From Patescibacteria group bacterium (GTDB taxonomy: Bacteria > Patescibacteriota > Patescibacteriia > UBA1558 > GWA2-36-10), in contig JBAYIR010000006.1 of the NCBI GenBank assembly GCA_041665505.1, positions 1,707 to 65,706 of the forward strand: 64,000 nucleotides of DNA. Reading direction: 5' to 3'. The notes under the pieces are model-generated. The model did no database searches, was not told where the DNA came from, and saw nothing but the letters and a program-made list of their open reading frames with translations. A program made the position numbers and the translations under genes. Numbering within the stretch: position 1 is the stretch's first letter; every line of letters begins with the position of its first letter. Shown one piece after another: positions 4,322-31,020 of this stretch.

Positions 4322-5104
4322 TTAATAAAGTGTCGAGATTAAAGGAAAAAAGATTACATGTAGCATTATATCAGCAGAGAAGTGAGCTATTATTGCAAAC
4401 TCTAAACCTTTTTTCCAATAGAGCCAACCAAAAACTAATCCGCCAACTCCATTTAGTAGTAGGGCTCGAAAAATTACCAAGGGGGTGATAGTTGTTAGAG
4501 CCGTGGTTATAGGCAGGTGTCCAAGGCCAAACAAAATTGAGGCAATTATAATAGCTGACCAGACTAAAAAATTATTTTTAACTAGCTCAGTTTTTACTTT
4601 TACCAGCTTGCTAATTAGCCAGAGTATAAAAGTCATAAAAAATAATCTCATTATAATCTCTTCGCTAATTCCACCATAAAAAGATGCCAAAAAACCTTGC
4701 CAGATTGGTATAGATGTTTGTCCCATGACATTTACACCCAGTTTGATAAATAAAAAATCTAGTAAAATTATAATAATGCCAGCTAGACAACCCAGTAGGA
4801 TAGATATTTTAATAGGCGCCTTAATATTAATATCAATTTTTTGTTTATTAATATAGCCTTCAAGAATTGGGATTTTGAAGCCTAATTTTTTTGATAGTTT
4901 TAATCCTATAAATAATAAAATAGCAATTAGTATAAAGCTTTGGAGTATTGCCACTATTATTACCAAGGGCAATGGTACAGGAGCAGCTCTTAGTACCTCT
5001 CCTTGGACGGTCATTATATAGGGCATAATGGCAATAATAGAAAATAGACTGGCCGTTAGTAGTATAAAATATAATTTCCAGTTAATTAAATTTTTTAGGT
5101 TCAT
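4322..5104 (-). CDS. CPBP-family intramembrane metalloprotease (CAAX protease / Abi-like)
   Basis: 260 aa polytopic protein. Carries the CPBP motifs 'EEIIMR', 'FGLGHLP' and 'HFSADIM' (EExxxR / FxxxH / HxxxD). Confidence 0.65.
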   Translation of the reverse strand: MNLKNLINWKLYFILLTASLFSIIAIMPYIMTVQGEVLRAAPVPLPLVIIVAILQSFILIAILLFIGLKLSKKLGFKIPILEGYINKQKIDINIKAPIKISILLGCLAGIIIILLDFLFIKLGVNVMGQTSIPIWQGFLASFYGGISEEIIMRLFFMTFILWLISKLVKVKTELVKNNFLVWSAIIIASILFGLGHLPITTALTTITPLVIFRALLLNGVGGLVFGWLYWKKGLEFAIIAHFSADIMLHVIFFPLISTLY

Positions 5105-5247
5105 ATTTTTAAAAATAATTTTGATGTCCTTAAGTAATTAGCTTATTCTATTCTAGCACTAGTTATTTACTTGGGCAATTCAATAGAAATAGAGGAATAT
5201 AGCTATTTAAATCTAGTTGTAAAATAATACTAAAAGGGCTGTTATCA

Positions 5248-5276
5248 TTGACAAATAGTCTTTTATATTATATATT
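5248..5276 (+). promoter_or_regulatory. consensus sigma70-type promoter (TTGACA-17 bp-TATATT) driving the GC-rich gene 5391-5798
   Basis: Exact TTGACA at 5248-5253, a 17-nt spacer, and TATATT at 5271-5276, all in AT-rich DNA. Confidence 0.5.
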
Positions 5277-5390
5277 GTTCAGTTGTCAATCACGGCAGCA
5301 CTCAATTTTCGCTGGAGAAGCTCTAGTACTGTCTTTTTTCTGCAGGCCGCAGAATTATAGACAGGCTAGGTTAACAGGAAAGGACCAAGT

Positions 5391-5798
5391 ATGTTCTCTA
5401 CAGTCAGTTGGAGTGTCCCCGGGACCACAGATCCCGAATCCTGCAACATCTTCGAGATCATGGCCAGAAGTGCGCGTGGTGAAAGCACCACGGCGTCGGA
5501 GGTCTTCATCTCTTTTCACTACTTGCCCGAGTCCTTGGCGGTTGAGATTGCCAAACATCTCAACTCCCAGCAGGCCAGGATGTTCTGGAGGATTCGGGAG
5601 ATCGACCCCATGCAGTTCCAGCCCCGCCGAAAGTGGTGGAAGCCCTTCACCAAGCCGCGCGTGGTTACCTGGCGTGATTACGCCAACCATCTCGGCTTCT
5701 ATGATGACCAGTCATGGTGGGACGCCTGCAAGGGCATCTCGCATGAGGTACTGAGCTACCTGGAGGGCTACCTGGAGACTAGTAATCAGTCGAGCTAA
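5391..5798 (+). CDS. hypothetical protein, GC-rich orphan gene (no TM, no known motif)
   Basis: 135 aa ORF with 'AGGAAAGGACC' about 10 nt upstream. Its GC content is far above the flanks. The overlapping ORFs at 5248-5754 and 5355-5690 are off-frame artefacts. Confidence 0.5.
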   Translation: MFSTVSWSVPGTTDPESCNIFEIMARSARGESTTASEVFISFHYLPESLAVEIAKHLNSQQARMFWRIREIDPMQFQPRRKWWKPFTKPRVVTWRDYANHLGFYDDQSWWDACKGISHEVLSYLEGYLETSNQSS

Positions 5799-5847
5799 AC
5801 ACAGCTCGAGCGAAGTCCGTAGATTGATGTCGTTTCAGACGACTGCG

Positions 5848-5887
5848 AAGGAGGGGGAGCTATTGGCACCTCTCCTTCTTCTTTTTG
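5848..5887 (+). terminator. rho-independent terminator (GAAGGAGGGG...CCTCTCCTTC + TTCTTTTTG), copy 1 of a shared module
   Basis: 10-bp GC-rich stem with a 12-nt loop followed by a T-tract. It is preceded by 'CAGACGACTGC', which is identical to the copy at 9781-9828. Confidence 0.6.
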
Positions 5888-5943
5888 ATTTTAATATTAT
5901 TATAACAAGCTAGTTAGTAGCTAGGTTTTACAAAAAAACTAGC

Positions 5944-6981
5944 TTAAGCTAGTTTTAATTTTCTAACAATACTTTTTTTATCATCAATTTCTATTAAATC
6001 GCCATCTTTAAATATAGCAGTAGCATGTTTGGTCGCTACTATACAAGGTATTTTCATTTCGCGAGATATTATAGAAGCATGGCAAGTCAATCCACCGTAG
6101 TCTGTCACTATACCAGCCACTTTTTTTAGGCTAGGAATAAATTCGGGATTAGTCATGATAGTGATTAAGATATCTCCAGATTTTATTTTGCTCAGCTGTT
6201 CTTTTTTTAGAACTATTTTGGCTGGGCCAGCCACTTTTTTTGAGTAGGTGATAATACCTTTTAGCTCACTTACATTGGCTAGGTTTTCGCTAGCCAAATA
6301 TTTAGTCAATGTTTTTTGAATTACTTGGCGCTTGATAGTTTTGGTTTTGAGATTAGTCATTGCCAGAAGGTATTCATTTTTTCTCTCCAGTAGAATATTT
6401 TGATTTGGTAGTTTTTTGCTAGCTAGATATTTGCTTATCTCTTTACTATTCAAAAGAGTTAAGTCAATTTTTTTATAATATTTTTTTAAGAAGTCATCTA
6501 ATATTTGTAAATCATTTATTTCGTTTCTTACTCTAGCTACTAATTTGTAGTTTTTTTCTTTTATCAAATCAAGCTTTTTTCTTTCAGTGGCATAATTAAA
6601 ATATATTCCAAACATGTAATGTAACCAAACTTTTTCTGCTAGTCTAGCCAAAAGTGACCAAGTTTTAGTATTTAACTTTAATCCGGGCAATTGTTTTTTT
6701 AATTGTTTGTATAGCTCTTCGGCTTTTTTTAGCTCTTTTATAATATATTTTTCATCTAATGTCTCATAATAATCTATCAGCTTATTCATTTCTGATTTTT
6801 TGCGGATTAGGGTCATGACACCATCTTGAGAATAAAACAAAGCATTTTTAAATGTATGCTTATATATTTTATGCATATTGTAATAGCCTTTGATTATTTG
6901 ATTGGTAGAGAAAAAAGACATTTCTCTGGCAGCACTTTTGTGCCAATCATTTTTAGCTGATTTTTTTGATTTGGTATACAT
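5944..6981 (-). CDS. PEP-utilising-enzyme mobile (phosphohistidine swivel) domain protein with an unknown N-terminal region
   Basis: The C-terminal ~90 aa read 'GGLTCHASIISREMKIPCIVAT...DGDLIEID'. This matches the PPDK/PEP-synthase phosphohistidine domain (GGxTSHAAIIARE). The N-terminal 250 aa are uncharacterised. Confidence 0.6.
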   Translation of the reverse strand: MYTKSKKSAKNDWHKSAAREMSFFSTNQIIKGYYNMHKIYKHTFKNALFYSQDGVMTLIRKKSEMNKLIDYYETLDEKYIIKELKKAEELYKQLKKQLPGLKLNTKTWSLLARLAEKVWLHYMFGIYFNYATERKKLDLIKEKNYKLVARVRNEINDLQILDDFLKKYYKKIDLTLLNSKEISKYLASKKLPNQNILLERKNEYLLAMTNLKTKTIKRQVIQKTLTKYLASENLANVSELKGIITYSKKVAGPAKIVLKKEQLSKIKSGDILITIMTNPEFIPSLKKVAGIVTDYGGLTCHASIISREMKIPCIVATKHATAIFKDGDLIEIDDKKSIVRKLKLA

Positions 6982-6986
6982 AAAAA

Positions 6987-7490
6987 CTATTTAATAATAG
7001 CTATTATTTGTCTGATTATTAACTCATCAGCTTTTATATATTGTCCTTTAAAATCAAACCAAACTATCATAAAGTCAGTTTTCTTGATTTTTCTGATTTT
7101 GCCTATTTCCGGATCTTGAAGATAAATATATTTGTCATCTAGCCCGGACACCACCGAATAATGTCCATCTGAAACTTCTGACTCAGAATATTCTGACCTA
7201 CCTTTGGTGAACCAGTCTACAATCACGGGGACTTTTCTGTCCAGCCATTTTTCAATATCTTTGAAACTACTATTGTTTTTGATGATGACTTTAAAACCTA
7301 AGCCTTCAGCTGTTCTTCTGATGTCTTTATCAAGGACACCTATGTTTTTTTTCACTTGGCAAAGTTTGGCTAAATCTTTTTCAGATTTATTAAGGCCATA
7401 ATAATCCAAAACAATTTTTAGTGAAGCTGGTCCGCACATATTAGCGTTGAGAGTTTCTTGGAAGGCTTTAATTTTTAGGAATTTTTTCAT
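6987..7490 (-). CDS. C39-like papain-fold peptidase domain protein (standalone, no ABC transporter)
   Basis: Carries 'QETLNANMCGPASLKIVLDYYG' (catalytic Cys in the Qx5CGxAxL context). Downstream His ('DGHYSVV') and Asp ('LQDP') complete the triad. 167 aa with no signal peptide. Confidence 0.55.
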   Translation of the reverse strand: MKKFLKIKAFQETLNANMCGPASLKIVLDYYGLNKSEKDLAKLCQVKKNIGVLDKDIRRTAEGLGFKVIIKNNSSFKDIEKWLDRKVPVIVDWFTKGRSEYSESEVSDGHYSVVSGLDDKYIYLQDPEIGKIRKIKKTDFMIVWFDFKGQYIKADELIIRQIIAIIK

Positions 7491-7497
7491 AAATCTA

Positions 7498-8073
7498 TTA
7501 TTGTAAAATTTTTTCTAATAATTCAGGAAATTCTTCGGTGCCCATATCATCTAAACAATAATGTCTATGGTTATTCAAATTAATGATTTCTCCACCTAGG
7601 GCTTGATGGAAAATTTTTAAGCTCTCTTTACCAGATGCTTCTTCATTGTTGGAAGTAAACATTATTATTTTATCTACCCGTTCTTTGATAGTGCTATCAA
7701 TATCATAAGTATAAAATTTCTTTTTAATATCATCGCCTGTTTTAGGTATTTTCCAGGGGGCAACTAAAATAAGTTTTGCCACTTTTGTTTTTGTTTCACC
7801 TAACCAACGGACCAAAAAATTAGTAGCACAACTGTGGCCTATTAGGATGGTATTTTGATTAACATTATATTTTTCAAATTCTATTTTAAATTTGTCGTAG
7901 ATTGGCTGCCATGGTTCGGGCATTTGAGGAGTCTCAGTATTTATTCCTTTCAAAATTAATTGTTTTTTAAGCCAAGGCATCCAGTGCTTATTATAAGTCC
8001 TAGTTTTTGGATTTATTGCCTGTTCTTTATTAGAAACACAGCCATGAATTATTATACAATTTTTTGTTTCCAT
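7498..8073 (-). CDS. alpha/beta hydrolase (RBBP9/YdeN-like serine hydrolase)
   Basis: 191 aa. Nucleophile-elbow motif 'IGHSCA'. Begins 'CIIIHGC' like RBBP9-family esterases. Confidence 0.5.
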   Translation of the reverse strand: METKNCIIIHGCVSNKEQAINPKTRTYNKHWMPWLKKQLILKGINTETPQMPEPWQPIYDKFKIEFEKYNVNQNTILIGHSCATNFLVRWLGETKTKVAKLILVAPWKIPKTGDDIKKKFYTYDIDSTIKERVDKIIMFTSNNEEASGKESLKIFHQALGGEIINLNNHRHYCLDDMGTEEFPELLEKILQ

Positions 8074-8167
8074 ATTCGTAATTAATTAATAAGCAAACAG
8101 CTTATTTTAATTTTAACACCCATAATCTAAGAAGGCAAAAATTTTAGTAGAGGCTATGTTTTTAGTA

Positions 8168-8196
8168 TTGACATTTTGTGATAAATATTGTATATT
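8168..8196 (+). promoter_or_regulatory. consensus sigma70-type promoter (TTGACA-17-TATATT) for the GC-rich operon 8288-9772
   Basis: Exact -35 and near-consensus -10 boxes with a 17-nt spacer. An SD 'AAGGGAAGGAG' lies before the ATG at 8288. Confidence 0.5.
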
Positions 8197-8287
8197 TGGT
8201 CGTTGTGATAATTTTGTCCCGTCACGTTGGTTCTTCACATAGAAGTTTCGAACAGTCCCAAACAGTCCTAAAGGGAAGGAGACAGCG

Positions 8288-8830
8288 ATGTTTCGTTACT
8301 TGCAGAGCGGCAAGGCTTTGGTCGCGATGTTTGTGACGAGCGTGATTGTGATGATCACCTCGTCTTTCGTCCTGATCAACGCCGGCCCGGAGAACTCTCG
8401 GGTGGATTTTTTGACCATGGAAGGTCACGATTTGTTGAGCCTGCCGTCGGTCAAGCTGGCCTATGACTTCGCGCTGGCCGACAGCGTGCTCACCGAGAAC
8501 ATCGAGTTTCTCGAGCGGCAAGGGCTCGATCAGGGCCAGGTAGCTTTCTATGGCGACCTGTCCAAGTACTATCAGGAGCTTTGCGGGCTCCGCCAGCAGG
8601 TCCAGACTTTGGCTCTGGAGTACCCTGATTCGCTCAGTGGTAACCACAGAGCCAACGAGGAGCTCAAGCAGGTGGCCAAGCCTGTCATGGCTGCGGTCAT
8701 CAATTTCAGATCGTCTTGGCTGCTGGCTCACGCCATGCAGCATGGACTCAAGTTCTGGAGCATGGCTTTCGGGCTGTCGCTTCTCTTCTTCATCTACGGC
8801 CTGATCTGCTGGAAGCAAGGCCGCTTCTAG
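8288..8830 (+). CDS. hypothetical bitopic membrane protein (N- and C-terminal TM helices, ~130 aa soluble middle), GC-rich
   Basis: 180 aa with a strong RBS. GC-rich codon usage is consistent along the frame. The antisense and off-frame ORFs here are artefacts of the GC-rich DNA. Confidence 0.55.
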   Translation: MFRYLQSGKALVAMFVTSVIVMITSSFVLINAGPENSRVDFLTMEGHDLLSLPSVKLAYDFALADSVLTENIEFLERQGLDQGQVAFYGDLSKYYQELCGLRQQVQTLALEYPDSLSGNHRANEELKQVAKPVMAAVINFRSSWLLAHAMQHGLKFWSMAFGLSLLFFIYGLICWKQGRF

Positions 8831-8845
8831 CTCAAAGGAGCACAC

Positions 8846-9772
8846 ATGTTCATCGACAGTCCGACCTACAGCCGAAGCAAATCGCCACACTACAGGTTTT
8901 GGCGCTGGACATACCAGAACAGTCTCTGGAACCGGTCGGTGCCAAATTCCTACCAGACCTCACTCTGCCTGTACTGGCAGCGGATGTTCTGGGTGGGGGT
9001 GCTGATCTTGCCGGTGTTGCACCTCCTGTACTTCGCCACCGCTGCTGTGGTCTACGAGCTGCTCTATAAGAGAGTGGTCAGGCCCGTGGTTAAGTTTGAT
9101 TTCCTGGCCGCCGTGGTCATCTGGCTGATGATTATGGGCATGGTGATCTGCGGGGAGGTGGAAGTACTTTTGTTCTACCTGGTGGTAGTGTGTAGTTGCG
9201 GCATCGTCGGCTTGCTTGCCATTGTTTTCTTCTGCATCTACGCCAAGAGAGCCGTGGAGTGGTTGCTCAAGAGGGTCATCGGACCTTTTCTCTGGGAGCC
9301 ATTCATTTGGCTCTGTGATTTCAACTGGCAGGTTTATCGACGGTACTACAACCGTCGACATCCTCTGCCGGACGAGGAGTGCACGATCAAGGGTTACAAC
9401 CAGCTCATGGTTCACAGCCTGTTCTGGCTGCAATCTGTTGTGGTGGCTCTGGCCTTGCACTTCGGTAGTGGTCAGGCTCATCCCGAGCTCTGGGGCTTGG
9501 CCTTGAGCTGGATCATCTGGTACGGGCTGGCCTTGCTGCTGGTTAGCTTGGTCATCAACCTGCTCATCAACCGGCACTACGACAAGCTGGACAAGGAGCG
9601 GTACTACGAGCTTTACCCGGAAAAGCGGCCGGGCAAGAAGCTGAAGATCAAGAGGGTGAAATCTAAGCCCTATCGCGAGCCTTCGCGGTGGGCGCACTGG
9701 AGGTACGACTTCAACCAGTGGCGTAAAGCCACCAAGGAGAAGGTCTGCCCTCTGGTGAAGTTCGTGGACTGA
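8846..9772 (+). CDS. hypothetical polytopic membrane protein (~6 TM) with a basic C-terminal tail, GC-rich
   Basis: 308 aa, tightly coupled to the upstream gene by a 15-nt gap. Hydrophobic helices alternate with short loops. Confidence 0.55.
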   Translation: MFIDSPTYSRSKSPHYRFWRWTYQNSLWNRSVPNSYQTSLCLYWQRMFWVGVLILPVLHLLYFATAAVVYELLYKRVVRPVVKFDFLAAVVIWLMIMGMVICGEVEVLLFYLVVVCSCGIVGLLAIVFFCIYAKRAVEWLLKRVIGPFLWEPFIWLCDFNWQVYRRYYNRRHPLPDEECTIKGYNQLMVHSLFWLQSVVVALALHFGSGQAHPELWGLALSWIIWYGLALLLVSLVINLLINRHYDKLDKERYYELYPEKRPGKKLKIKRVKSKPYREPSRWAHWRYDFNQWRKATKEKVCPLVKFVD

Positions 9773-9790
9773 TCTCGTCGAGACGACTGC

Positions 9791-9828
9791 GAAGGAGGGG
9801 TGCTAATGACCCCTCCTTCTTCTTTTTG
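9791..9828 (+). terminator. rho-independent terminator (GAAGGAGGGG/CCCCTCCTTC + T-tract), copy 2 of the shared module
   Basis: Perfect 10-bp stem with a 9-nt loop followed by TTCTTTTTG. The 5' context 'AGACGACTGC' is identical to that at 5838-5847. Confidence 0.65.
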
Positions 9829-9866
9829 CTTAAAATAAAAATTTAATTAATTTTGGGCTTTTAATA

Positions 9867-9895
9867 TTGACAATATTGTTGTTATATGATATAAT
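9867..9895 (+). promoter_or_regulatory. consensus sigma70 promoter (TTGACA-17-TATAAT) for 9963-11582
   Basis: Perfect consensus hexamers with a 17-nt spacer, sitting in an AT-rich intergenic island inside the GC-rich region. Confidence 0.5.
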
Positions 9896-9903
9896 ATTTT
9901 GTT

Positions 9904-9933
9904 AACCAAAATGACCAATTCTGGTCTTTGGTT
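9904..9933 (+). ncRNA. 5'-leader RNA hairpin motif, copy 1 (AACCAAA-AU-GACCA-AUUC-UGGUC-UUUGGUU)
   Basis: Nested inverted repeat between the promoter and the RBS of 9963. It is homologous to the element at 10591-10622. Confidence 0.4.
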
Positions 9934-9962
9934 GGTACACTCACAGCTTTTTTAAGGAGGCC

Positions 9963-10586
9963 ATGATGGTTAGACTGTTGTTCTGGTTCCAAGTCGTCAT
10001 GGCTTGGATTTATATGGTGCCTCAGGTGGTGCAAATCACCAGAGGTAAAACTAACGGGTTGACCCTAGCGATGTGGGCGATTATGATGGGCTATCTTTTG
10101 GTCAGTCTCTCGTTGGCACTGCTTGCTTGGCGAGAGAAAAAAGAAAAGATTCGCCTGTATACCGTTATTGTCTTCGCACAGTGGGCTGTGTTTGTCTTGG
10201 TGTTGTTTGTTATGAGCATCAAGTCAGTTCACTGGTCTGCTGGTGACACCGTAGTCTGCCTGGCAGTCAGCATCCTTTCAATCATCACGGTAATGCGAAA
10301 TGGTCTGAAAGACCCCATGACCCGTGCTTGGTTGTCTGTTTGGTGTAAGGGTGTTCCACAACTTTGGGCGGCTTATGTAATGATGACTGCCCACAGCACA
10401 GAATGGCTACATCCACTCGCACTTTTTGCAAGCAACGCAACTTCGATTCCCAGGCTCGTTCAAGTCTATCTGCAAGGTAGGCGAGGTGGCTGGGACAGAG
10501 CGACTAAGGGCCTGTTTCTTGGTGAGACCGCCAATGTCGCCACTTGGACAGTGGTAACTATTGTGTGGTTTGTCCTAAGATTCTAG
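9963..10586 (+). CDS. PQ-loop-repeat-like membrane protein (SemiSWEET/LAB_N-like), GC-rich
   Basis: 207 aa with about 6-7 TM helices. Carries 'MVPQVVQITRGKTNGLTL', which resembles the PQ-loop signature (PQ...K/R.T..LS). SD 'AAGGAGG' before the ATG. Confidence 0.45.
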   Translation: MMVRLLFWFQVVMAWIYMVPQVVQITRGKTNGLTLAMWAIMMGYLLVSLSLALLAWREKKEKIRLYTVIVFAQWAVFVLVLFVMSIKSVHWSAGDTVVCLAVSILSIITVMRNGLKDPMTRAWLSVWCKGVPQLWAAYVMMTAHSTEWLHPLALFASNATSIPRLVQVYLQGRRGGWDRATKGLFLGETANVATWTVVTIVWFVLRF

Positions 10587-10590
10587 ACCT

Positions 10591-10622
10591 AAACCAAAAT
10601 GGTCAATTCCGACCACTGGTTT
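10591..10622 (+). ncRNA. RNA hairpin motif, copy 2 (AAACCA-AAAU-GGUC-AAUUCC-GACC-AC-UGGUUU)
   Basis: Same architecture as 9904-9933. The inner stem is changed GACCA/UGGUC to GGUC/GACC, a compensatory substitution. Confidence 0.4.
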
Positions 10623-10647
10623 GTCCTTAGAAAGGGGTGTCTCGAAG

Positions 10648-11067
10648 ATGAGAGAGAAACTGTTGGTTACGTCGCTGATGATGCTCGTCATGGTCAGCTT
10701 CACTGGTTGCAAACGGACTGTTGTTCAGCAGTCTGGCGAGCTGACCGAGTCGGCAGTGGTCGACGAGGTGATTTTCAGCCCATCATCGCACGGCTCTTCG
10801 GTCGGACCGACCATGTCAGGCGATGGTGGCATCGGCATCGCGGTGACTTCGGTCAGTATACCGGAGAAGTACGCAGTCGTGTTCCGTTGCCAGCACGGCA
10901 AGTTCGTCGTCCAGGGTACCAGCCAGAAATACAAGGAGCTCTGGGAGCGCTTGATCCGTGGCCAGGCCGTCACTGTTTACTACAAGGAAACCTACCGTGT
11001 CGTGTACGAAGGAGAAGAGCTCCTTTCCCGCGAGCTCATTGGTTACGATTTCCTCACCGCTAGGTAG
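10648..11067 (+). CDS. putative lipoprotein, GC-rich
   Basis: Begins 'MREKLLVTSLMMLVMVSFTGC', a signal peptide plus lipobox Cys. An RBS 'AAAGGGG' lies upstream. The track ORF from 10621 starts on TTG inside the hairpin. Confidence 0.5.
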   Translation: MREKLLVTSLMMLVMVSFTGCKRTVVQQSGELTESAVVDEVIFSPSSHGSSVGPTMSGDGGIGIAVTSVSIPEKYAVVFRCQHGKFVVQGTSQKYKELWERLIRGQAVTVYYKETYRVVYEGEELLSRELIGYDFLTAR

Positions 11068-11093
11068 TGCCACTGTCCATTCAGGAGGAAGAG

Positions 11094-11582
11094 ATGCTGA
11101 CGAAATACAGTCTGTCGAAGTTCGATCGTGGTAGCGCGGCCTATGTGGTCGCGCATGCTCGTTGGAAGCGGAGTAGGGGTCGTGGGCCTTCCATGTCCTA
11201 CCTCACCGAACGCAACCCGGTGAAAGCACTGGTCAACGCTCAGACTTTCCTCGTGGCGTTCGGTCGTCGACAGGAGCTGGAGGAAATGCTTCAGTATCTT
11301 CCGCTCACGACGCCCAAACAGGCTGCGGCGATGGACAAGCAGACGATCGAGCTCCACATTCGCCGCATCGCCATCGAGTGCAAGTCTGAGACTGAGCTTG
11401 CTCAGCGTTTGACCGATGAGCTCGGCTTCAGTGGTGCTCTCATCAACTGGTACGAACCGACCGACCAAACCGGCGTCGAGGCGCGAGATCTCGTTCGTGC
11501 CTTCGGTGGTCTCATCTCCAAAAACGGGGCCATGGTCAGTGTGATGATCTACACTCTGAGTGATGATGTGATCATCGTGTGA
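11094..11582 (+). CDS. hypothetical cytoplasmic protein, GC-rich
   Basis: ATG at 11094 follows SD 'CAGGAGGAA'. About 162 aa with no TM helices. It is translationally coupled to the lipoprotein gene. Confidence 0.5.
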   Translation: MLTKYSLSKFDRGSAAYVVAHARWKRSRGRGPSMSYLTERNPVKALVNAQTFLVAFGRRQELEEMLQYLPLTTPKQAAAMDKQTIELHIRRIAIECKSETELAQRLTDELGFSGALINWYEPTDQTGVEARDLVRAFGGLISKNGAMVSVMIYTLSDDVIIV

Positions 11583-11641
11583 TTCTGGCGGTCGCGCCAG
11601 AACAAGAGGTCAAGGCTTTCTCCTCAGAGAGAAGCTATCGA

Positions 11642-11680
11642 GGGCCGCTGACGTAAGTCGGCGGCCCTTTCATTTTGTTT
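11642..11680 (+). terminator. rho-independent terminator (GGGCCGC...GCGGCCC + T-rich)
   Basis: 7-bp GC stem with an 11-nt loop followed by TTTCATTTTGTTT. Confidence 0.5.
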
Positions 11681-11750
11681 AAAATAAAAAAATCTGGCCA
11701 AAGCCAGAATTTTGCTAGTGGATAATTTATAAGAAGACAATTTAAAATGA

Positions 11751-11781
11751 GGCTGCAACCGTGCTACGGTCGCAGCCTCAT
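11751..11781 (-). terminator. hairpin terminator downstream of csrA (GAGGCTGC...GCAGCCTC)
   Basis: 8-bp stem. On the minus strand it is followed by ATTTTAAATT. Confidence 0.4.
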
Positions 11782-11807
11782 CTGATCTCTAGTCCCGCAA
11801 GGGCCTT

Positions 11808-11996
11808 CTAGACGCTAGCAGAGCTAGCTTTCTTTTTGGCCTCTTTGTCGGCCCGGACTTCTTCTCGGTCGACAGGCACGTCATCGGGAGCTTCAATGCC
11901 GACCTGCACTTGGTCGCCTCTGATGTCGGCGATAATGATGACAATGTTGTCACCAATGTATATTTTTTCGTCTTTTTTTCTGGACAGGACCAACAT
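11808..11996 (-). CDS. csrA: carbon storage regulator CsrA (RNA-binding global regulator)
   Basis: 62 aa beginning 'MLVLSRKKDEKIYIGDNIVIIIADIRGDQVQVGIEAPDDVPVDREEV'. This closely follows the CsrA consensus (MLILTRR.GE...IGD...V.VL...G..V.IGI.AP..V.V.REE). The coding DNA is GC-rich. Confidence 0.65.
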   Translation of the reverse strand: MLVLSRKKDEKIYIGDNIVIIIADIRGDQVQVGIEAPDDVPVDREEVRADKEAKKKASSASV

Positions 11997-12065
11997 GGCT
12001 TCCTCCCTGAACTTGAGTCTTCCTTGAATCTAGCCTTGAGGCTAGGGCGAAATGAACCGGGGATT

Positions 12066-12094
12066 ATTATAGATTTTTTGGATGTTTTTGTCAA
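12066..12094 (-). promoter_or_regulatory. consensus sigma70 promoter (TTGACA-17-TATAAT) for csrA with a GGA-rich leader
   Basis: Minus-strand -35 at 12094-12089 and -10 at 12071-12066. The leader contains a CTAGCC-UCAA-GGCTAG hairpin and several GGA motifs before the SD. Confidence 0.45.
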
Positions 12095-12153
12095 TTATAA
12101 AAACTCCCCAGCCGAAGCTAGGGAGTTTTTTTGTTTAATATAGAGAAATAAAA

Positions 12154-12483
12154 TTATTTTAATACCATAATAGAAATTCGCCTAATAATTGTTACTGCTG
12201 CTCCCCAAGCCATTGGTGCCCACAATGGTAATCCAAAAAATGTTGGATTACTATAATACCAAGCACCTTGATGGATTGTTAGACTTTCACCTATTGGTCC
12301 AAGTATAAAGGCAGTAAAATAATAAGATAGATCTTCTTTCTCGTGCCATTTTAAAAATATTAGAGCAGTAATTATCACAAAAACAATTGTTAGCCAAGTG
12401 TTGTTATTGTAAAGATATGTGATAGCTACAACACAAACTGCAAATAGTATAATTGCCAATAATAATTCTTTTATTTTTTTCAT
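12154..12483 (-). CDS. small integral membrane protein
   Basis: 109 aa with 3 TM helices. A bidirectional hairpin terminator follows at 12096-12140. Confidence 0.45.
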   Translation of the reverse strand: MKKIKELLLAIILFAVCVVAITYLYNNNTWLTIVFVIITALIFLKWHEKEDLSYYFTAFILGPIGESLTIHQGAWYYSNPTFFGLPLWAPMAWGAAVTIIRRISIMVLK

Positions 12484-12558
12484 GATTTTTAGTTTATATA
12501 ATAAACAATCAGCTTATTCCGATTCGCTCCTCAGATATCCAGCTTTGGGTAAGTAGTG

Positions 12559-13080
12559 CTACATCAAAGCCTTAATTTCCGTCTCCAATTTTTGTATTCT
12601 ATTTTTAGCTAATTGAACTGTCTGTAAAAAGTCTTTATCATTTTTGTATCGTTTTTCAATATCTTCAAATCTTTCTTTTAAACTGACCCTTTCTTCATTT
12701 TGATTATAATACATATCAGCTAAAACAATGATTTTATTTTCAACAGTTTTAGGCAAAAATTTATCAGGGGCAGTATTTTTTGCTAAAGGTGTTTCGTAAA
12801 TAAATCCGTGCATAGCAATTTTAGCAATATCATCAAGACCTTCTTTTTTTAAAACTTCAACAGTATTTAATTCATGGAGACCTTCTTTATAACGTCCTAT
12901 GTCATGTAATAGGGCAGCAATTTTAACTTTTTCAGGGTTTATATCCAAGGATATATTTTTTTGTTTAATTTTTGTCGCCATCTCGTAGGCTACATCAGCT
13001 ACACCTAGACAATGCTTGATAGTTTTTTCATCAGTCAAATAACGCTTTAACAAGAGCAGAGCTTGGTCATAAGTTATCAT
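12559..13080 (-). CDS. HD-domain phosphohydrolase
   Basis: 173 aa with an 'LLHDIGR' HD motif. Confidence 0.6.
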   Translation of the reverse strand: MITYDQALLLLKRYLTDEKTIKHCLGVADVAYEMATKIKQKNISLDINPEKVKIAALLHDIGRYKEGLHELNTVEVLKKEGLDDIAKIAMHGFIYETPLAKNTAPDKFLPKTVENKIIVLADMYYNQNEERVSLKERFEDIEKRYKNDKDFLQTVQLAKNRIQKLETEIKALM

Positions 13081-13092
13081 AAAATTTTAATC

Positions 13093-13941
13093 TTAGTATT
13101 TAACTAATGCCTTTAGTAATTTGCTATATTGGGCATATTTTTCTTTGTGAGATGAATAATAGGGGATTATATATAGCAAATGCAAAACAGCAAAATACTT
13201 TATTTTTTTCATATTGACTAGGTTTTTACCATAGCCATTAAGAATATGAGAAAATTTTTTATTTGGATTTTCAAGATATGCTTTGGCTAAATCATATTCT
13301 TTTGGCCCGCAACTAAGATCGCCAAAGTCTATAATCCCAGCTAGCTTATTATTTTTTACCAAAATATTATCGTCTATTAAATCAAAGTGTAGGAGGACAG
13401 ATTTATCAGAGTCAAATAGAGAAATATTATCATAGATAAATTTTTTGGTATGCTGTAACAGCTTTTTATCAAATGTTTTTATTTTGGATAATAGAGGTAG
13501 ATTTTCTTTAAGTAAAAATTCAATATGTTGAGTAGGATTTGCTTGTCGGCCCTTGCCACCAGTCATTAATTCTCCAAAACCACTCATCTTAATTTGGTGA
13601 ATTTTTTTGATAGTTTTTCCTAAGGTATTATAAAAGTTAATATTTTGTGGTTTAGCTTTATTTAATGTTTCGCCGTTTATAAAAGTCTCAATCAGAAAAG
13701 TCCGGCCTTTTAAAATGATTTTTGGTAGTAGCTTAATTTTTAAATGACTACAAACAAAATTTTCTCTATAAATCATTAATTCATTACCTTTACGAGGAAA
13801 TTTTATTATGTATTTATTTTTGTCCGTTTCAACAATTTTTACAACTTGGGCAATGCCATGAGAGCAGTCGTTTATACTTACAACTTCTTCATGTAGTCGT
13901 TGTTTAAAAATAAAAATTATTTTTTTATCTAGCTTGGTCAT
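13093..13941 (-). CDS. aminoglycoside/choline-kinase-family phosphotransferase (APH-like)
   Basis: 282 aa. Carries the Brenner motif 'LHFDLIDDNILV' (HxDxxxxN) and a downstream 'IDFGD'-like 'IIDFGDLS'. Confidence 0.6.
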   Translation of the reverse strand: MTKLDKKIIFIFKQRLHEEVVSINDCSHGIAQVVKIVETDKNKYIIKFPRKGNELMIYRENFVCSHLKIKLLPKIILKGRTFLIETFINGETLNKAKPQNINFYNTLGKTIKKIHQIKMSGFGELMTGGKGRQANPTQHIEFLLKENLPLLSKIKTFDKKLLQHTKKFIYDNISLFDSDKSVLLHFDLIDDNILVKNNKLAGIIDFGDLSCGPKEYDLAKAYLENPNKKFSHILNGYGKNLVNMKKIKYFAVLHLLYIIPYYSSHKEKYAQYSKLLKALVKY

Positions 13942-13955
13942 TTATGGTAATTTTT

Positions 13956-14423
13956 TTATTTTAATCTATTTGAAAAATGTTTTTTGGCTATTTTTATAAA
14001 ATTTAGATCTCGATTATTCATTTTTATTTCAAAAGGGACTGTGCTTCTAACTTTTTCAAATAAACTTATTGCCTCCTCAAAAGATAACCATAATAATCTA
14101 AACTTATTGGCTAGTTCTTCTTCGGTAAAGTATGATGTCTGATGGTCTTTTATTTTTTGAGCTAAAAAGCATACAGAATGATGAAATAAATTTGGGTCAT
14201 TTGGATCTGTGAATTTAGCTTCTCCAATCATTTCAATAAGTCGAACATCACAAGCTCCTTCTTCTAGCGCTTCTCTAATTGCTGCCATTTCCGCGCTCTC
14301 ACCATTTTCAATACCACCTCCAGGGATTTTGTGATAGTCTCCATTTTTTACCTCCAAAACAGCAATTTTTTCTTGCTTTTCATCTAGGATAATTGTTCTG
14401 GCTGCTTCTCTAATATTTGGCAT
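13956..14423 (-). CDS. NUDIX hydrolase
   Basis: Nudix box 'GGGIENGESAEMAAIREALEEGA'. Confidence 0.7.
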   Translation of the reverse strand: MPNIREAARTIILDEKQEKIAVLEVKNGDYHKIPGGGIENGESAEMAAIREALEEGACDVRLIEMIGEAKFTDPNDPNLFHHSVCFLAQKIKDHQTSYFTEEELANKFRLLWLSFEEAISLFEKVRSTVPFEIKMNNRDLNFIKIAKKHFSNRLK

Positions 14424-14537
14424 ATATGTAAATTATAACATCCCAAATATTTCCAGGCAATTTAGCTAAAAAGCACAAAAATAGCCGCAAATATTCACGG
14501 CTAAATTTTAGGATTTTTATTAGGGATTATTTAATTA

Positions 14538-15461
14538 TCAAATATCAAAATATCTTTCCCAAATTTCCTTAGCTATTATTTTAGCATTATTTTTATTAAA
14601 ACCATCAAGATAAATATTATTTAGATAATTATAGATATCATTTTCTGTGCTAAAAGATTTAAAAGTAGATATAAATTGATGTATATATGAATCATATTCA
14701 TCATGAGGTGCCCCACCATCTATAAGCTCACTAGGGACATTATTCATAAATAGGTTTTGGATAAACAAAAATTCTTCTTTAAAATTTTTTTCATCTATTT
14801 TTATGTAGGCTTTAATTTTAGGATCCAATGGCCTATGGAAATCTATTCCTTTATTTAATGGTTTATTTTTAAATTCGTGGTCAGTTATTGTTAATTTTAT
14901 GTCATAATCACTATCTATAAATTCATAGTTATTAATATGGTTAACTAATTCTCCATCACTATCATCTTGCTTTGAATAAATAATATTGTCTTCCTTCTTA
15001 TTTAGATAAAGATGCAGTATGCGACCATTTTTATGATTAAATATATGTGGTACTATAAAATCATTTTTTTCAAGTTTTTTTGTATTAATTTTAATATTTT
15101 CTAAGTTAAATATTATTATTTTTAATAAAAGAAATGGTTTAATAAATTTCTCTGGTTTGATAGTGGGTAATTTTTTTAATTTTAGTGCATGAATATTTTT
15201 ATTTTTGAAATGGGATAGCCCTGCAACATAATGGTAAGAAAATTCTTCGAGATTTTTGTTTTCATATTTAAACTGTTCATAATAATTATCTACAATTTGT
15301 GAAGTTTTATCTATGTCATACAATTTTCCACCCAATTTATTTTTTGGAAAACATATTTTTATATAAGGTTCACCTCTCCCGTCGGATTGACTTAAAACTA
15401 TAAATATTTTGAATAAGTTATTTTTCTCATCTTTTATAAATAGTCTTTCCAAGTTAATCAT
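14538..15461 (-). CDS. hypothetical protein (Asn/Lys-rich, no motif)
   Basis: 307 aa intact ORF. Confidence 0.45.
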   Translation of the reverse strand: MINLERLFIKDEKNNLFKIFIVLSQSDGRGEPYIKICFPKNKLGGKLYDIDKTSQIVDNYYEQFKYENKNLEEFSYHYVAGLSHFKNKNIHALKLKKLPTIKPEKFIKPFLLLKIIIFNLENIKINTKKLEKNDFIVPHIFNHKNGRILHLYLNKKEDNIIYSKQDDSDGELVNHINNYEFIDSDYDIKLTITDHEFKNKPLNKGIDFHRPLDPKIKAYIKIDEKNFKEEFLFIQNLFMNNVPSELIDGGAPHDEYDSYIHQFISTFKSFSTENDIYNYLNNIYLDGFNKNNAKIIAKEIWERYFDI

Positions 15462-15511
15462 AAAATTATTTATTATTTTAAAGAACGGAGACTATAAGTC
15501 TCCGTTCTTGA

Positions 15512-18466
15512 TTACTTCATATCACAACTACCTTTAAATCCACATTGTTTGGAGCATTCAGTACAGCCACCAAACTTGGCCATAATACCTTGTTTACACT
15601 GAGGACAGATTTTACCTACTTCTGGACCATATTTAGTGGGGTCAAGCTCTGCTTCATCTGGTTCAGGAATTTCTAGGTCAGCGTGCTTTCTAGCATTTTG
15701 CATTTCCGGGATTTCGGCTTTGACAGCTTCTTTAAAGGCTGGTATTTGCTCTTGCTTGGTCGGCTTTCTATCACCATTGTAGGCTAGGTTTTTCTCTTCA
15801 GTATCAGCACTAGTAGTCAGCACTTGCTCATCACGAGAGCTATCTCTATAGATTGTCACACCTTTACAACCCAGCTCATAGGCTTTTTCATACAGCTGAG
15901 CAGTTTGTTCTACAGTATAGTCAGCCGGAGCATTAGCAGTTTTGGAAATAGAGGAGTCAGTCCATTTTTGGACAGCGGCTTGGACTTTGATGTGCTCCAT
16001 TGGCTCTAGCTCCATAGCCGAGACAAAAAATTCTGGTAAAGTGCCATTACTCCTATATTCTTGAGCTAGAGGAATCAGCACTTCATGAAAGCCTAGTCTA
16101 GACTGGCGATAAAATTTGAAAGCATAGTAGGGTTCTATACCAGTAGAAGTGGAAAGCATGGAGCCGACTGTGCCAGTAGGAGCTTGAGTAGTCAAAGTGA
16201 CATTTCTAATACCATTTTCTCTAATCATTTGGCGGACATCTTCGGGCATAGTTTTCATAAAACCAGAGTCTAGGAATTTGTCAGCGTTGAATTTTGGGAA
16301 AGAGCCTTTTTCTTTGGCAATGCGAGAGGATTCTTTGTACATTTCCGAAGCAATAATTTTGTAGAGCTCGTCTATAAAGACCAGAGATTCATCAGAGCCG
16401 TAGCGCAAGCGTAGTTTGATGAGCATTTCTCCCAGTCCTAGTGTGCCCCCACCAACCCGGCGTTCTTTTTTCTGGTTATCTTCATTTTCTGGAAAGTGGT
16501 AAGGAGTGAGGTCAATGACATTGTCCAAAAATCTAGTCAAAGTGCGAGCGGCTTGCTTTAATTCTGACCAATTGACTTTGAAAGTTGGTCCCAGCTCATC
16601 ACGGCCAGCTTCTTCCAAAAAGGAAGCTAAGTAGAGATGTCCCAAATTACAGACACCCCAACCAGGTAGGCCTTGCTCACCACAAGGGTTGGTGCAGATT
16701 ATTTTGTTGAAATAATAGGAATTGGATTGTTTGTTGTATCTTTCCATAAAGACCACGCCTGGTTCAGCGCTAGCATGAGCAGAAGTGACTAGTTTGTTCC
16801 ACAACTCGCGAGCTTTGATAGTTTTGTATATTTTGGTGGGGTAGTTGGCTTCTTTCCAAGCTTGCAAATCGCCAGTCCATTCTTTGTCGTAGATATCAGC
16901 AAAAGCTGGATTTTCATAATCAGGAAATTCCAAATTCCAGTCTAGGTTGTTTTTGACGGCTTCCATAAAGCTATCAGAAATCATGACAGATATATTGGCA
17001 TTTTCAATTTGACCAGCCACATTTTTGGCGGAAATAAATTCTAGTACATCTGGATGCCAATCCCATTGCATGAGCATCAGTGCGCCTCTTCTAGAACCAC
17101 CTTGCTCTATCAGACCAGTGGCATAGGAAAATAGTCCAGCCCAAGATACTGAGCCTGATGATTTGCCGTGTACACCTTTGACATAGGCGTAGCGAGGGCG
17201 TAGAGCGGAGAGAGTCATACCAACGCCACCACCACGACTCATCACTTCTACCATTTGGTGTAGTGAGTCTTTGACAATGGCTTTTCTAGAATCTAGAGGT
17301 GATGGTAAAACATAGCAGTTAAAGAGAGTCAGGTTGCTAGTGTAGTTGCCATGTTTGTCCAAATTGGCGCCAGTCATAATACGGCCACCTGGTTGAATAT
17401 ATTTTTTAGATAAGGCTTCAAAAAAGTCTTCAAAGTATTTGATTTTATTTTCTTCGGTTTTTTCTACACTAGCTACTGCTCGAGCAATTCGGCGGTGAGA
17501 ATCGGAAATAGCCTCGCGGGGTTTGTCACATTTGAAAATATCTTGTTCAAATTCAAAATTATTGACTGCTTCGGCATAAATGCCAGTCAGCATGTGTATT
17601 TTGGCGCGGTCACTGCTAATCATTTCTTTGATAATACCCAAATCTTTTTTGGGATATTTTCTATCTTCTTTGGTAATGACAATCACTAGGTCACCTAGAG
17701 CAATATCTTCTCTTTTGTCTTTGATAGAATAGCGATCCAAAAAAATAATCCGACCCAATTGATCAAAATTGGTAGAATTGTTGATTATGTGTTTGGCTTG
17801 TTTAGAAAGATTGACGCCAGCTTCTTGAAGTTTTTTGACTTCTTCTGAAGTAATCTCTTTACCCTGCTCAATACGGATTTTTTTTCTTTGCTCACGATAG
17901 AGGATAAAGTGTTTGGCAGTTCTAGCCCAATTGGACTGAATCAGGATGATTTCAATGATATCTTGTATTTGTTCTACCCCTGGAGTCAGGTGGTCGTTAA
18001 ATTTGTGCTCCAAAATAGCAGTGACTACATCAGCCAATCTTTGGGCTTCTTCTCTATTATATTCACCAGAGGCTTGTCCGGACTTAAATAAAGCAGCAAA
18101 GACCTTATCTTTATCAAAAGGCACAATAGAGCCATCTCTTTTTTTGATTTGTTTAATGCCGGTGGCTATTTCTTTTTCTTTGACGAGCTTTTGACCACGA
18201 GTTTTAAAGTAAACCTTAGCTACTTCAGGGTAGTTGTTGTCCAAAAGTACTATATTAACAGCACTTCTGATGTCATCACTGGTAATGTTTTGATTATTAG
18301 AGTAGCTATCTTCCAAATATTTGACCACTTCTTTGGATAATTGGCCAGAGATAGGATTATCTTTTAGCCCAGTGCTAGTGATTGATTGAGATAGAGAAAA
18401 AATGAGCTTATTAATGTCAAAATTTTCTATTCGACCATCACGCTTTTTGATTTCCTTTAACTGCAT
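15512..18466 (-). CDS. nrdJ: ribonucleotide reductase, class II (adenosylcobalamin-dependent), with two N-terminal ATP-cone domains and a C-terminal Cys4 zinc ribbon
   Basis: 984 aa. Two ATP-cone repeats ('KRDGRIENFDINKL', 'KKRDGSIVPFDKDKV'). Active-site 'TNPCGEQ' and a C-terminal 'CPQCKQG...CTECSKQC'. Confidence 0.8.
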   Translation of the reverse strand: MQLKEIKKRDGRIENFDINKLIFSLSQSITSTGLKDNPISGQLSKEVVKYLEDSYSNNQNITSDDIRSAVNIVLLDNNYPEVAKVYFKTRGQKLVKEKEIATGIKQIKKRDGSIVPFDKDKVFAALFKSGQASGEYNREEAQRLADVVTAILEHKFNDHLTPGVEQIQDIIEIILIQSNWARTAKHFILYREQRKKIRIEQGKEITSEEVKKLQEAGVNLSKQAKHIINNSTNFDQLGRIIFLDRYSIKDKREDIALGDLVIVITKEDRKYPKKDLGIIKEMISSDRAKIHMLTGIYAEAVNNFEFEQDIFKCDKPREAISDSHRRIARAVASVEKTEENKIKYFEDFFEALSKKYIQPGGRIMTGANLDKHGNYTSNLTLFNCYVLPSPLDSRKAIVKDSLHQMVEVMSRGGGVGMTLSALRPRYAYVKGVHGKSSGSVSWAGLFSYATGLIEQGGSRRGALMLMQWDWHPDVLEFISAKNVAGQIENANISVMISDSFMEAVKNNLDWNLEFPDYENPAFADIYDKEWTGDLQAWKEANYPTKIYKTIKARELWNKLVTSAHASAEPGVVFMERYNKQSNSYYFNKIICTNPCGEQGLPGWGVCNLGHLYLASFLEEAGRDELGPTFKVNWSELKQAARTLTRFLDNVIDLTPYHFPENEDNQKKERRVGGGTLGLGEMLIKLRLRYGSDESLVFIDELYKIIASEMYKESSRIAKEKGSFPKFNADKFLDSGFMKTMPEDVRQMIRENGIRNVTLTTQAPTGTVGSMLSTSTGIEPYYAFKFYRQSRLGFHEVLIPLAQEYRSNGTLPEFFVSAMELEPMEHIKVQAAVQKWTDSSISKTANAPADYTVEQTAQLYEKAYELGCKGVTIYRDSSRDEQVLTTSADTEEKNLAYNGDRKPTKQEQIPAFKEAVKAEIPEMQNARKHADLEIPEPDEAELDPTKYGPEVGKICPQCKQGIMAKFGGCTECSKQCGFKGSCDMK

Positions 18467-29680: not shown

Positions 29681-29749
29681 TTCTTATTGATAATTATTAT
29701 CAATAATATAATTTAAACACTAAAAAGTCAAGTTTTTTGACTGATATGA

Positions 29750-29778
29750 TTGACAAAGGCCTTTTTTTGTGCTATACT
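29750..29778 (+). promoter_or_regulatory. consensus sigma70 promoter (TTGACA-17-TATACT), divergent from the Fur-family gene
   Basis: Exact -35 and good -10 with a 17-nt spacer. There is also an AGTCAA-N5-TTGACT palindrome at 29722-29738. Confidence 0.45.
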
Positions 29779-29805
29779 GTATTTGTAAGTTAGAATTGGC
29801 AACAA

Positions 29806-29843
29806 ATCCCAAAGGGGATTATGCCAATTTTTTGTTTTTCTAG
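29806..29843 (+). ncRNA. candidate small RNA: double-stem hairpin (TTGGCA/TGCCAA outer, AATCCC/GGGATT inner) plus a U6 tract about 25 nt after the promoter
   Basis: The promoter is followed by the hairpin and a T-tract. The predicted transcript is only about 60 nt and contains no ORF. Confidence 0.35.
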
Positions 29844-29942
29844 AGCCTTTTAGAAAAACAGCCCCAATAATTTAATAATTAACAAAAACTTACTAAAAAC
29901 TTCTATGTTTTTATCGTCAACAGTGGCAGGAGGGATAAATCT

Positions 29943-30086: not shown

Positions 30087-30105
30087 TTAATTAATAAAAT
30101 AAATT

Positions 30106-30913: not shown

Positions 30914-31020
30914 AATTATATTTTAATAAAGAACCTTGTCATATACAGGGTTTTTTATTTTGTCTGAAAAAATGTTATAATAAACATGATTTAAATTTAA
31001 GAGCATTTTCTAATAATTTT

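Follow-up and report, generated by a model that had tools for sequence, protein, structure and literature searches.

How does a block of GC-rich genes come to stand in the AT-rich chromosome of an ultra-small bacterium, and what kind of element is it? The question is raised by a 4-kb block of six genes in a 64 000-nt stretch of a Patescibacteria group bacterium contig (JBAYIR010000006.1, assembly GCA_041665505.1); this whole stretch is called the window and supplies all coordinates unless another contig is named. The answer that we favour, with slightly more confidence than doubt, is that the block forms a flexible, accessory part of a Patescibacteria (candidate phyla radiation, CPR) chromosome and is made of three moron-like autonomous expression cassettes. 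Morons are defined as autonomous extra genes in lambdoid and Mu-like prophages (PMC4378225). We call the cassettes moron-like because they have their own promoters and terminators, a deviant composition, a presence/absence distribution and small envelope products. The argument starts from observations of composition, signal anatomy, natural occurrence, presence/absence polymorphism, purifying selection and the distribution of the protein families.

Measured in 300-nt windows, GC content steps from 0.28–0.32 (7850–8299) to 0.46–0.59 (8150–12049) and back to 0.28–0.33 beyond 12050; the segment 8.2–12.05 kb has a GC content of 49–58%. The four 1-kb windows over 8–12 kb have a GC content of 0.49–0.53, as compared to mostly 0.27–0.39 outside the GC-rich segments, where the mean of the window sequence is 0.33. 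This profile bears out the sharp discontinuity reported in a first-pass annotation of the DNA. The G/C-ending codon usage described there was found as well: GC content at third codon positions (GC3) is 0.55–0.79 in the block genes versus 0.16–0.33 in host genes throughout the window. In the reading frames of that annotation the genes are:

8288–8830, plus strand: p180, a membrane protein (NCBI locus tag WCV71_03755), GC3 0.78
8846–9772, plus strand: p308, GC3 0.79
9963–10586, plus strand: p207, GC3 0.55
10648–11067, plus strand: p139, GC3 0.72
11094–11582, plus strand: p162, GC3 0.68
11808–11996, minus strand: csrA, GC3 0.59

Judged by their sequences, the products appear to be mostly envelope proteins (p180, p308, p207 and p139), joined by the presumably soluble p162 and the putative regulator CsrA.

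These frames are the correct ones: the NCBI annotation of the metagenome-assembled genome (MAG) agrees with them, and the ratios of nonsynonymous to synonymous divergence (dN/dS) lie well below 1. NCBI gives the same frames for five of the six block genes and for p135, the gene of a further cassette, A (WCV71_03735 to _03775); no protein record was found for p308 with its exact start at 8846. On contigs from ENA and Logan, long spurious open reading frames (ORFs) are annotated as genes at 8222–8890 (minus strand), 8960–9697 (minus strand) and 10599–11063 (plus strand), antisense to or shifted from the GC-rich genes. Because gene callers took these ORFs, the databases hold the block genes only in part, and p308 is absent in its true frame. 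We also considered the GC-rich stretch as structured RNA rather than coding sequence, and rejected this in view of the GC3 periodicity, the dN/dS values below 1, the seven-transmembrane (7-TM) model of p207 and the lack of an above-threshold Rfam match. Three of the five spacers are AT-rich as first described (GC content 0.33, 0.35 and 0.38); the description fails for 10587–10647 (0.46) and 11583–11807 (0.48), which are full of GC-rich hairpins.

A sharp composition step together with textbook promoters could also be the mark of an artefact, that is, a chimeric assembly, a GC-rich contaminant or a synthetic construct. The flanking 191-aa protein and CsrA are encoded on an 83-kb ENA contig (ERZ27249449), a 15.6-kb Logan contig (SRR6484324) and an 8.5-kb JGI contig (3300037810). 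Over both junctions the window is matched at 100% identity by the ENA and Logan contigs, and the JGI contig, from a different sample, represents a 99.27% identical strain and spans 9678–18169 including the right junction. Block proteins are also on record from a 68-kb NCBI/JGI contig, and NCBI names them ‘MAG: ... [Patescibacteria group bacterium]’. Furthermore, a 628-nt ENA contig carries a variant of ∼91% identity and a sister genome one of ∼82%; there are thus diverged natural alleles, with purifying selection, and promoter and untranslated region (UTR) parts are contiguous with host sequence and partly common to the sister genome. With the same junctions in independent assemblies and natural variants at 99.3%, ∼91% and ∼82% identity, the engineered construct or chimeric assembly considered in the first-pass annotation can be set aside, and an artefact of any kind is hardly credible.

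The block consists of three units: B1 (p180 and p308), B2 (p207, p139 and p162) and B3 (csrA, on the minus strand). Their promoters and terminators are predicted from sequence signals only:

8168–8196, plus strand: promoter P1, TTGACA-17-TATATT (11 of 12 consensus positions), serving B1
9781–9836, plus strand: intrinsic terminator of B1, with its hairpin at 9791–9819
9867–9895, plus strand: promoter P2, perfect TTGACA-17-TATAAT with a TG-extended −10 box, serving B2
9902–9950, plus strand: p207 5′ UTR hairpin in the 60-nt B2 leader
11583–11685, plus strand: three-hairpin 3′ region of B2, the last hairpin being the terminator (11640–11669)
11747–11781, minus strand: csrA terminator hairpin, its stem conserved and its loop variable
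11997–12094, minus strand: csrA leader region with the 70-nt leader and P3, nearly invariant between variants
12094–12066, minus strand: promoter P3, perfect TTGACA-17-TATAAT, serving csrA

Each unit thus has its own sigma-70-type promoter, and the TTGACA-17-TATAAT promoters noticed at first sight are present. The perfect form occurs twice in the 64 kb (P2 and P3; 0.02 expected). Eight sites in the window match with at most one mismatch, four of them in GC-rich cassettes, which make up ∼7% of the sequence. The remaining four are surrounded by AT-rich host DNA, away from the cassettes; judging by coordinates, those at 18698 and 63160 (both minus strand) immediately precede the ORFs for ribonucleotide reductase and a DEAD-box helicase. 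Since half of the near-consensus sites stand in host sequence, the promoter type is the host's own, and such promoters, which also precede p207 homologues elsewhere, are no speciality of the block.

The terminators connect the block to two further GC-rich units of the window:

5248–5885, plus strand: cassette A, with TTGACA-17-TATATT, a coding sequence (CDS) at 5391–5798 and a B1-related terminator
24230–23908, minus strand: cassette C, with TTGACA-17-TACTAT, an ORF at 24142–23972 and a related terminator

An identical 20-mer, AGACGACTGCGAAGGAGGGG, is found in the terminators of B1 and cassette A, and the terminator of cassette C is a recognisable relative. The tail of the B1 terminator, TTTTGCTTAAAAT, is common to other cassettes, and the tail TTTTGYTTAAAAT occurs exactly at B1, B2 and C and at just one further site. 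Cassette A encodes p135, a soluble ORFan of 135 aa (GC3 0.76), behind a structured leader (z −2.5); the 57-aa product of cassette C (GC3 0.74) has a single TM segment and ends in SAWNTPVS. The architecture of promoter, GC-rich CDS and terminator is therefore repeated in five units at three loci, and the block is not alone of its kind. Integron-type cassettes were considered and rejected, given the separate promoter of every unit and the lack of an integrase.

Presence and absence of the units can be followed in a sister genome (Logan SRR22387796, L006; comparison loci bear L numbers), whose host genes are 93–96% identical to those of the window in DNA and 92–98% in protein. It lacks 5112–6948 (cassette A and a PEP-utilising-domain gene), the gene of the 191-aa hydrolase and 8174–9855 (the B1 unit). 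Homology runs from upstream of P1 straight into P2, with the break within the TATTGACA promoter box, and 9856–12102 (B2 and B3) is kept at 81.7% identity. The region is accessory, as first supposed: between flanking genes of 93–96% identity the p180–p308 unit is missing, and so is cassette A. In the comparison of the window with the sister genome we determined dN/dS values of 0.17, 0.20, 0.37 and 0.11 for p207, p139, p162 and csrA (dS 0.81, 0.57, 0.50 and 0.46, respectively) and 0.03–0.14 for four flanking host genes (dS 0.18–0.35). On account of these values, the block genes are real and constrained, and their divergence exceeds that of their surroundings two- to threefold. The p207 leader at 9902–9950 is 100% identical despite the dS of 0.81 in the CDS, the p207–p139 spacer has two differences, and three variants show hardly any change in 11583–11685 and the csrA leader. 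Locus L005 combines a p162 end like that of the sister genome with a window-like csrA; such a mosaic speaks for recombination between the two types of allele. In a relative further removed (L091; host DNA ∼88% identical, dS 0.30–0.94), cassette C is found at the identical site with a GC3 of 0.71 versus 0.74 in the window. Its protein is 47% identical (dN 0.41), as compared to 78–96% for host proteins; the promoter retains the TTGACA-17 architecture and differs in its −10 hexamer, and the terminator hairpin core looks alike by eye.

Which proteins do the units carry? Among 1.84 billion representatives, ∼139 clusters are related to p207, and no Pfam entry corresponds to this family: the PQ-loop profile PF04193 has no match to p207 and matches only one of 89 family members (E 3.5e-4). 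An AlphaFold (AF2) model from 89 sequences has seven helices at a predicted local distance difference test score (pLDDT) of 97. Its Foldseek neighbours in the PDB are cystinosin (8dkw, 8dyp; E 7e-4 to 1e-3, TM-score 0.58–0.66), then KDELR (6i6h) and SWEET (5ctg); the best matches among these proteins reach TM-scores of 0.60–0.66, at sequence identities of 10–20%. Pro-Gln dipeptides are present at 20–21 and 132–133. In the second, P132 hardly varies across the family and Q133 is conserved to at least 90% in the close set; the first dipeptide is conserved among close relatives only. Model and structure search support, at fold level, the original label of a PQ-loop-like 7-TM protein: p207 is modelled with a PQ-loop/SWEET/KDEL-receptor-type 7-TM fold and is a putative transporter.

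A genome scan with a trimmed p207 alignment, the full family alignment being too diverse, gave matches that include one Patescibacteria MAG record, ‘uncultured Gammaproteobacteria’ records and one Nanoarchaeota record; a close-relative scan of IMG/VR with the p207 alignment gave no match. In the genome loci compared, the homologues share 37–74% protein identity. Those in L010–L014 have their own near-consensus promoter, with a TG-extended −10 box in most (not L013), and beyond their stop codons one can read GC-rich hairpins with T runs behind them. In GC or GC3, p207 homologues lie above their contig or the genes beside them at five of six genome loci and in L011, and do not in L016 and L010. 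In the Patescibacteria-type locus L013 the homologue is GC-rich (GC3 0.82), and a GC-rich gene of 282 aa (1032–1880 of that contig, GC3 0.70) is also found amid genes of GC3 ∼0.3; single GC-rich genes may be common in such genomes. In two distant genomes (L015, 239–1885; L017, 5374–7042) a p207 homologue lies within 0.5 kb of a homologue (62–64%) of the 191-aa Ser-hydrolase that flanks the block. The pair is convergent there and divergent in the window; this proximity could be a weak functional link or coincidence.

The lipobox of p139, FTGC, is seen directly (LVMVSFTGC), which confirms its assignment as a lipoprotein. Its family of ∼20 related clusters has a conserved core, IPEKYAVVFRCQHGKF, with the invariant family core IPEKYAVVF(R/K)CQHGKF, and no match in Pfam or PHROGs. 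Relatives are found on contigs with archaeal markers (family-B DNA polymerase, FEN-1, a TYW2-type methyltransferase and prefoldin) and in an NCBI Pacearchaeota MAG. The archaeal-type relatives have native composition (GC3 0.31 and 0.20); a relative on a CPR-like contig has a GC3 of 0.79 at a contig GC content of 0.41. The family also occurs on five IMG/VR viral contigs (35–66% GC) and in a 735-kb uncultured phage. It crosses domains, with members on DPANN-type contigs (L021, L024) and in phages (L028, LR756501.1); in the phage version at 7896–8393 of L028 a type-IV-pilin-like N-terminus replaces the lipobox. To characterised superinfection-exclusion lipoproteins of the Llp, Cor or Ltp type p139 shows no homology.

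Four relatives of the soluble p162 share the N-terminal motif GSAAYVVAHARW.RSRGR.PSM. One of them has a GC3 of 0.86 and lies beside gatC on a contig of ∼45% GC; another adjoins AT-rich sequence. Homologues in L007 and L009 exceed contig or neighbouring genes in GC, and a metagenome scan with the p162 alignment yielded at least one locus, with a relative of native composition in a 38% GC contig. A PDB search with the p162 model (pLDDT 77.5) yielded no structural neighbour. p180 has been called bitopic, that is, single-pass; two hydrophobic segments (12–30 and 156–174) speak against this. p308 is a polytopic membrane protein as annotated, with a basic C-terminal tail and at least four clear TM segments; the proposed count of six was not confirmed. 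Among 5.8 billion proteins it finds one near-identical fragment; it matches phrog_944 (‘membrane protein, moron’) weakly, at E 6e-5, and has no tblastn match in phages. Close-relative scans of IMG/VR with p308, p162 and p180 gave no matches, and p180, p139, p162 and p135 match nothing in Pfam, NCBIfam, PHROGs or PADLOC; the PADLOC defence models give just two chance-level matches to the block proteins (E 0.04–0.05). The statement that the genes are unrecognisable apart from the PQ-loop-like one mostly holds.

The csrA assignment is borne out by Pfam: over profile positions 1–49 of 53, the 62-aa protein matches PF02599 at 76.5 bits (cut-off 27, E 1.5e-21). It falls below the NCBIfam equivalog cut-offs (NF002469, 63.6 versus 73; TIGR00202, 61.1 versus 70.1), and we classify it from its sequence as a family member without assigning it as the canonical orthologue. 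Residues 1–49 align with RsmE (2jpp) and E. coli CsrA (1y00), including MLxLxRK at 1–7 and REE at 44–46; the aligned positions include L2, L4, R6 and R44, and the N-terminal strand and the surroundings of R44 are what we take to hold the conserved RNA-binding residues of CsrA. Its leader contains GGA motifs, located at the ribosome-binding site and further upstream. Viral sequences include 59 loci with relatives; the closest of these (70–72% identity) lie on viral contigs of 55–57% GC, which is the composition of the block. No neighbouring ORF matches a family other than CsrA, so no FliW was found near the gene, and Rfam detects no Csr/Rsm sponge RNA in 5100–12300; such partners could be encoded in other parts of the genome. 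We also considered csrA and the structured RNA at 11583–11685 as a Csr sponge pair and rejected this, since that RNA contains no GGA motifs. In groundwater ultra-small prokaryotes, csrA is reported to be among the highly expressed genes (PMC9938205).

The 3′ region of B2 at 11583–11685 resembles an RNA element in its own right, with a minimum free energy of −49.7 kcal/mol (z −6.3). It is ∼96% conserved over three variants whose neighbouring CDSs differ by 18%, and it has a full-length, sub-threshold Rfam match to the small RNA (sRNA) BjrC68 (31.7 bits versus 39); it could be a stabilising 3′ UTR or a 3′-derived sRNA. Two related hairpins on the plus strand, AACCAAAATGACCAATTCTGGTCTTTGGTT and a variant of it, precede p207 (9904–9936) and p139 (10592–10624) and are almost invariant in the sister genome. 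Their inner palindrome GACCA-N4-TGGTC could equally be a protein operator.

Do these genes work together? The first-pass annotation had proposed one undescribed system, and in its strongest form the block would be a single co-functional envelope system under CsrA control. p207, p139, p162 and csrA indeed stand together in the same order in the window and the sister genome, a p162-like gene in L018 likewise follows a small lipoprotein, the related hairpins stand before both p207 and p139, and the Shine-Dalgarno regions of the block contain GGA, as most such sequences do. However, p180–p308 is dispensable in the sister genome, p207 occurs alone or with other partners in L012–L017, a p162-like gene alone in L007 and a p139-like gene alone in L019, L021 and L024. 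Between the L018 lipoprotein and p139 no relationship can be detected (E 6.1), the 59 viral loci with csrA carry no other block gene, and no match to known defence systems was found. The block falls into three separate units whose families occur singly in other Patescibacteria, DPANN and phage contigs, and a single system is quite improbable.

We return to the three moron-like cassettes. In the mechanism that we propose, they would stem from a pool of genes that ultra-small bacteria and ultra-small archaea share with their phages, and would be gained, lost and recombined as units, with breakpoints in promoter or terminator modules. p139, csrA and, weakly, p308 have phage links, and p139 and p207 are common to CPR and DPANN. 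The cassettes may have arrived by phage or another mobile element; p207, p139 and p162 would be co-transcribed, CsrA probably regulates its own GGA-rich leader, and the products might act at the cell surface in uptake, host-cell interaction or phage exclusion. Several observations weigh against such an origin. The cassettes stand amid ordinary chromosomal genes, with no phage or prophage to be recognised around them: hydrolase, C39 peptidase, HD, NUDIX and kinase genes make up the flanks, and a domain search of them returned no integrase or phage domains. The block DNA has no match to GenBank phages or PLSDB plasmids, the only tRNAs of the window are at 41.9–42.2 kb, none marking the block, and no convincing direct repeat flanks it; the integrase, tRNA target and direct repeats of a classical genomic island or integrative element are all absent. 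No donor sequence was found, p180 and p308 have no relatives, and the 19-nt shared terminator motif is not found in IMG/VR. Furthermore, the GC-rich state is kept in the sister genome and in L091, and a rough two-state neutral-decay model on the host dS clock requires an ancestral GC3 of 0.85–0.90 for p139 and 0.95–1.05 for cassette C.

The last two points show that simple recent import is insufficient, because the GC-rich state is old (block dS 0.46–0.81 between the window and the sister genome). The recent acquisition that had been proposed thus stands as regards the foreign composition and is only partly right as regards the date: relatives retain the GC-rich state, and p207-p139-p162-csrA predates the split from the sister genome. 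One could go further and regard the genes as long-standing residents that are actively kept GC-rich, their composition marking a functional class and not foreignness; selection on mRNA stability or structure, translation slowed by rare G/C-ending codons and repeated allele replacement out of a GC-richer pool are the candidate causes. Cassette C, with GC3 values of 0.74 and 0.71 in two genomes at a host dS of 0.3–0.9 and a decay estimate near or beyond the upper limit of GC3, fits this, as do the p207 and p162 homologues that exceed their surroundings and the UTRs that are more conserved than synonymous sites. Synonymous changes polarised with L012 as outgroup are balanced (GC-to-AT versus AT-to-GC 12:15); with L013 they are AT-biased (18:7), so that the result depends on the outgroup, and the counts are small. 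Other hosts carry the families in native, AT-rich composition (p139 in L021, L024 and L031; p207 in L010 and L016; p162-like in L018), and GC-richness is consequently not intrinsic to them. Given this, the roughness of the decay model and the variable presence of the units between close relatives, we regard long-standing residence with an actively maintained GC content as unlikely. As to why the GC-rich state persists, alleles may be exchanged with a GC-richer pool, to which the excess divergence and the mosaic L005 point; selection for GC in transcripts is possible, the ultra-conserved UTRs showing that RNA-level constraints exist; and the clock may simply be wrong.

Two observations concern other parts of the window. 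In L004, the 99.3% strain, nearly all differences from the window lie inside the ribonucleotide reductase gene (∼40 substitutions in 1 kb at 16053–17033), apart from a 16-nt indel at 15617; the cluster looks like a recombination tract. Between a Fur-like gene and an oxidoreductase, 1.3 kb (29700–31020) contain no ORF longer than 60 aa. This segment begins with a near-consensus promoter (29750, plus strand), has no Rfam match and includes small ORFs: two encode membrane peptides (47 aa and 39 aa), and a GC-rich one at 30731–30913 encodes 60 aa of acidic character.

Attachment to other cells is the way of life of Patescibacteria, whose envelope proteins are for the most part uncharacterised. The locus supplies candidates: a PQ-loop-type transporter family, a lipoprotein family of CPR, DPANN and phages, and a CsrA with a conserved leader. 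The cassettes vary between near-identical strains, and it is in such places that one would expect proteins of host contact or phage resistance. Gene prediction that has been trained on AT-rich host sequence misframes such islands, and the families are consequently under-represented in protein databases. GC-rich genes that last in AT-rich genomes also pose a small, testable puzzle of mutation bias versus selection, and this persistence is the one aspect by which the finding could go beyond the ordinary. In a bolder view, to which we give little credence, AT-rich Patescibacteria would carry a distinct class of small, self-contained GC-rich cassettes with shared promoter, leader and terminator modules and fast-evolving envelope products. 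Their GC content would be actively maintained, by mRNA selection or by constant replacement out of a phage-borne pool shared with DPANN. If true, this would amount to a dedicated modular ‘surface-interface’ gene-shuffling layer of episymbiotic ultra-small cells.

Compared with known systems, the individual proteins are part familiar and part new. CsrA resembles CsrA/RsmE regulators, including the phage-borne phrog_9500, in its Pfam match, key residues and GGA-rich leader; it differs in its short length, Lys/Ala/Ser tail, sub-equivalog scores and a composition foreign to the host. p207 shares the 7-helix bundle with cystinosin, KDELR and SWEET proteins and has two PQ dipeptides of uneven conservation, but lacks a Pfam PQ-loop match and belongs to a family apparently confined to ultra-small prokaryotes. 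With exclusion lipoproteins p139 has a lipobox and phage-borne relatives in common, a functional analogy being speculation. Genomic islands of Patescibacteria, and transfer of membrane-related genes among Patescibacteria or between them and DPANN, have been documented (PMC12455944). The block is like these islands (PMC12455944) in being deviant and accessory and in carrying membrane-associated families shared mainly with other CPR and with DPANN, but it measures only 4 kb, has neither mobility genes nor tRNA or repeat borders, and is built of promoter-to-terminator cassettes. Phage morons are matched by cassettes of one to a few CDSs with a sigma-70-type promoter, a factor-independent terminator and deviant composition, by the presence or absence of B1 at one site between close relatives with no recombinase signature, and by products that are small membrane proteins or lipoproteins. 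In contrast to morons, several cassettes share related terminators, and their odd composition is kept across related genomes. What is new here is the occurrence of moron-like cassettes, or of a mini genomic island, in a CPR chromosome, together with three undescribed protein families.

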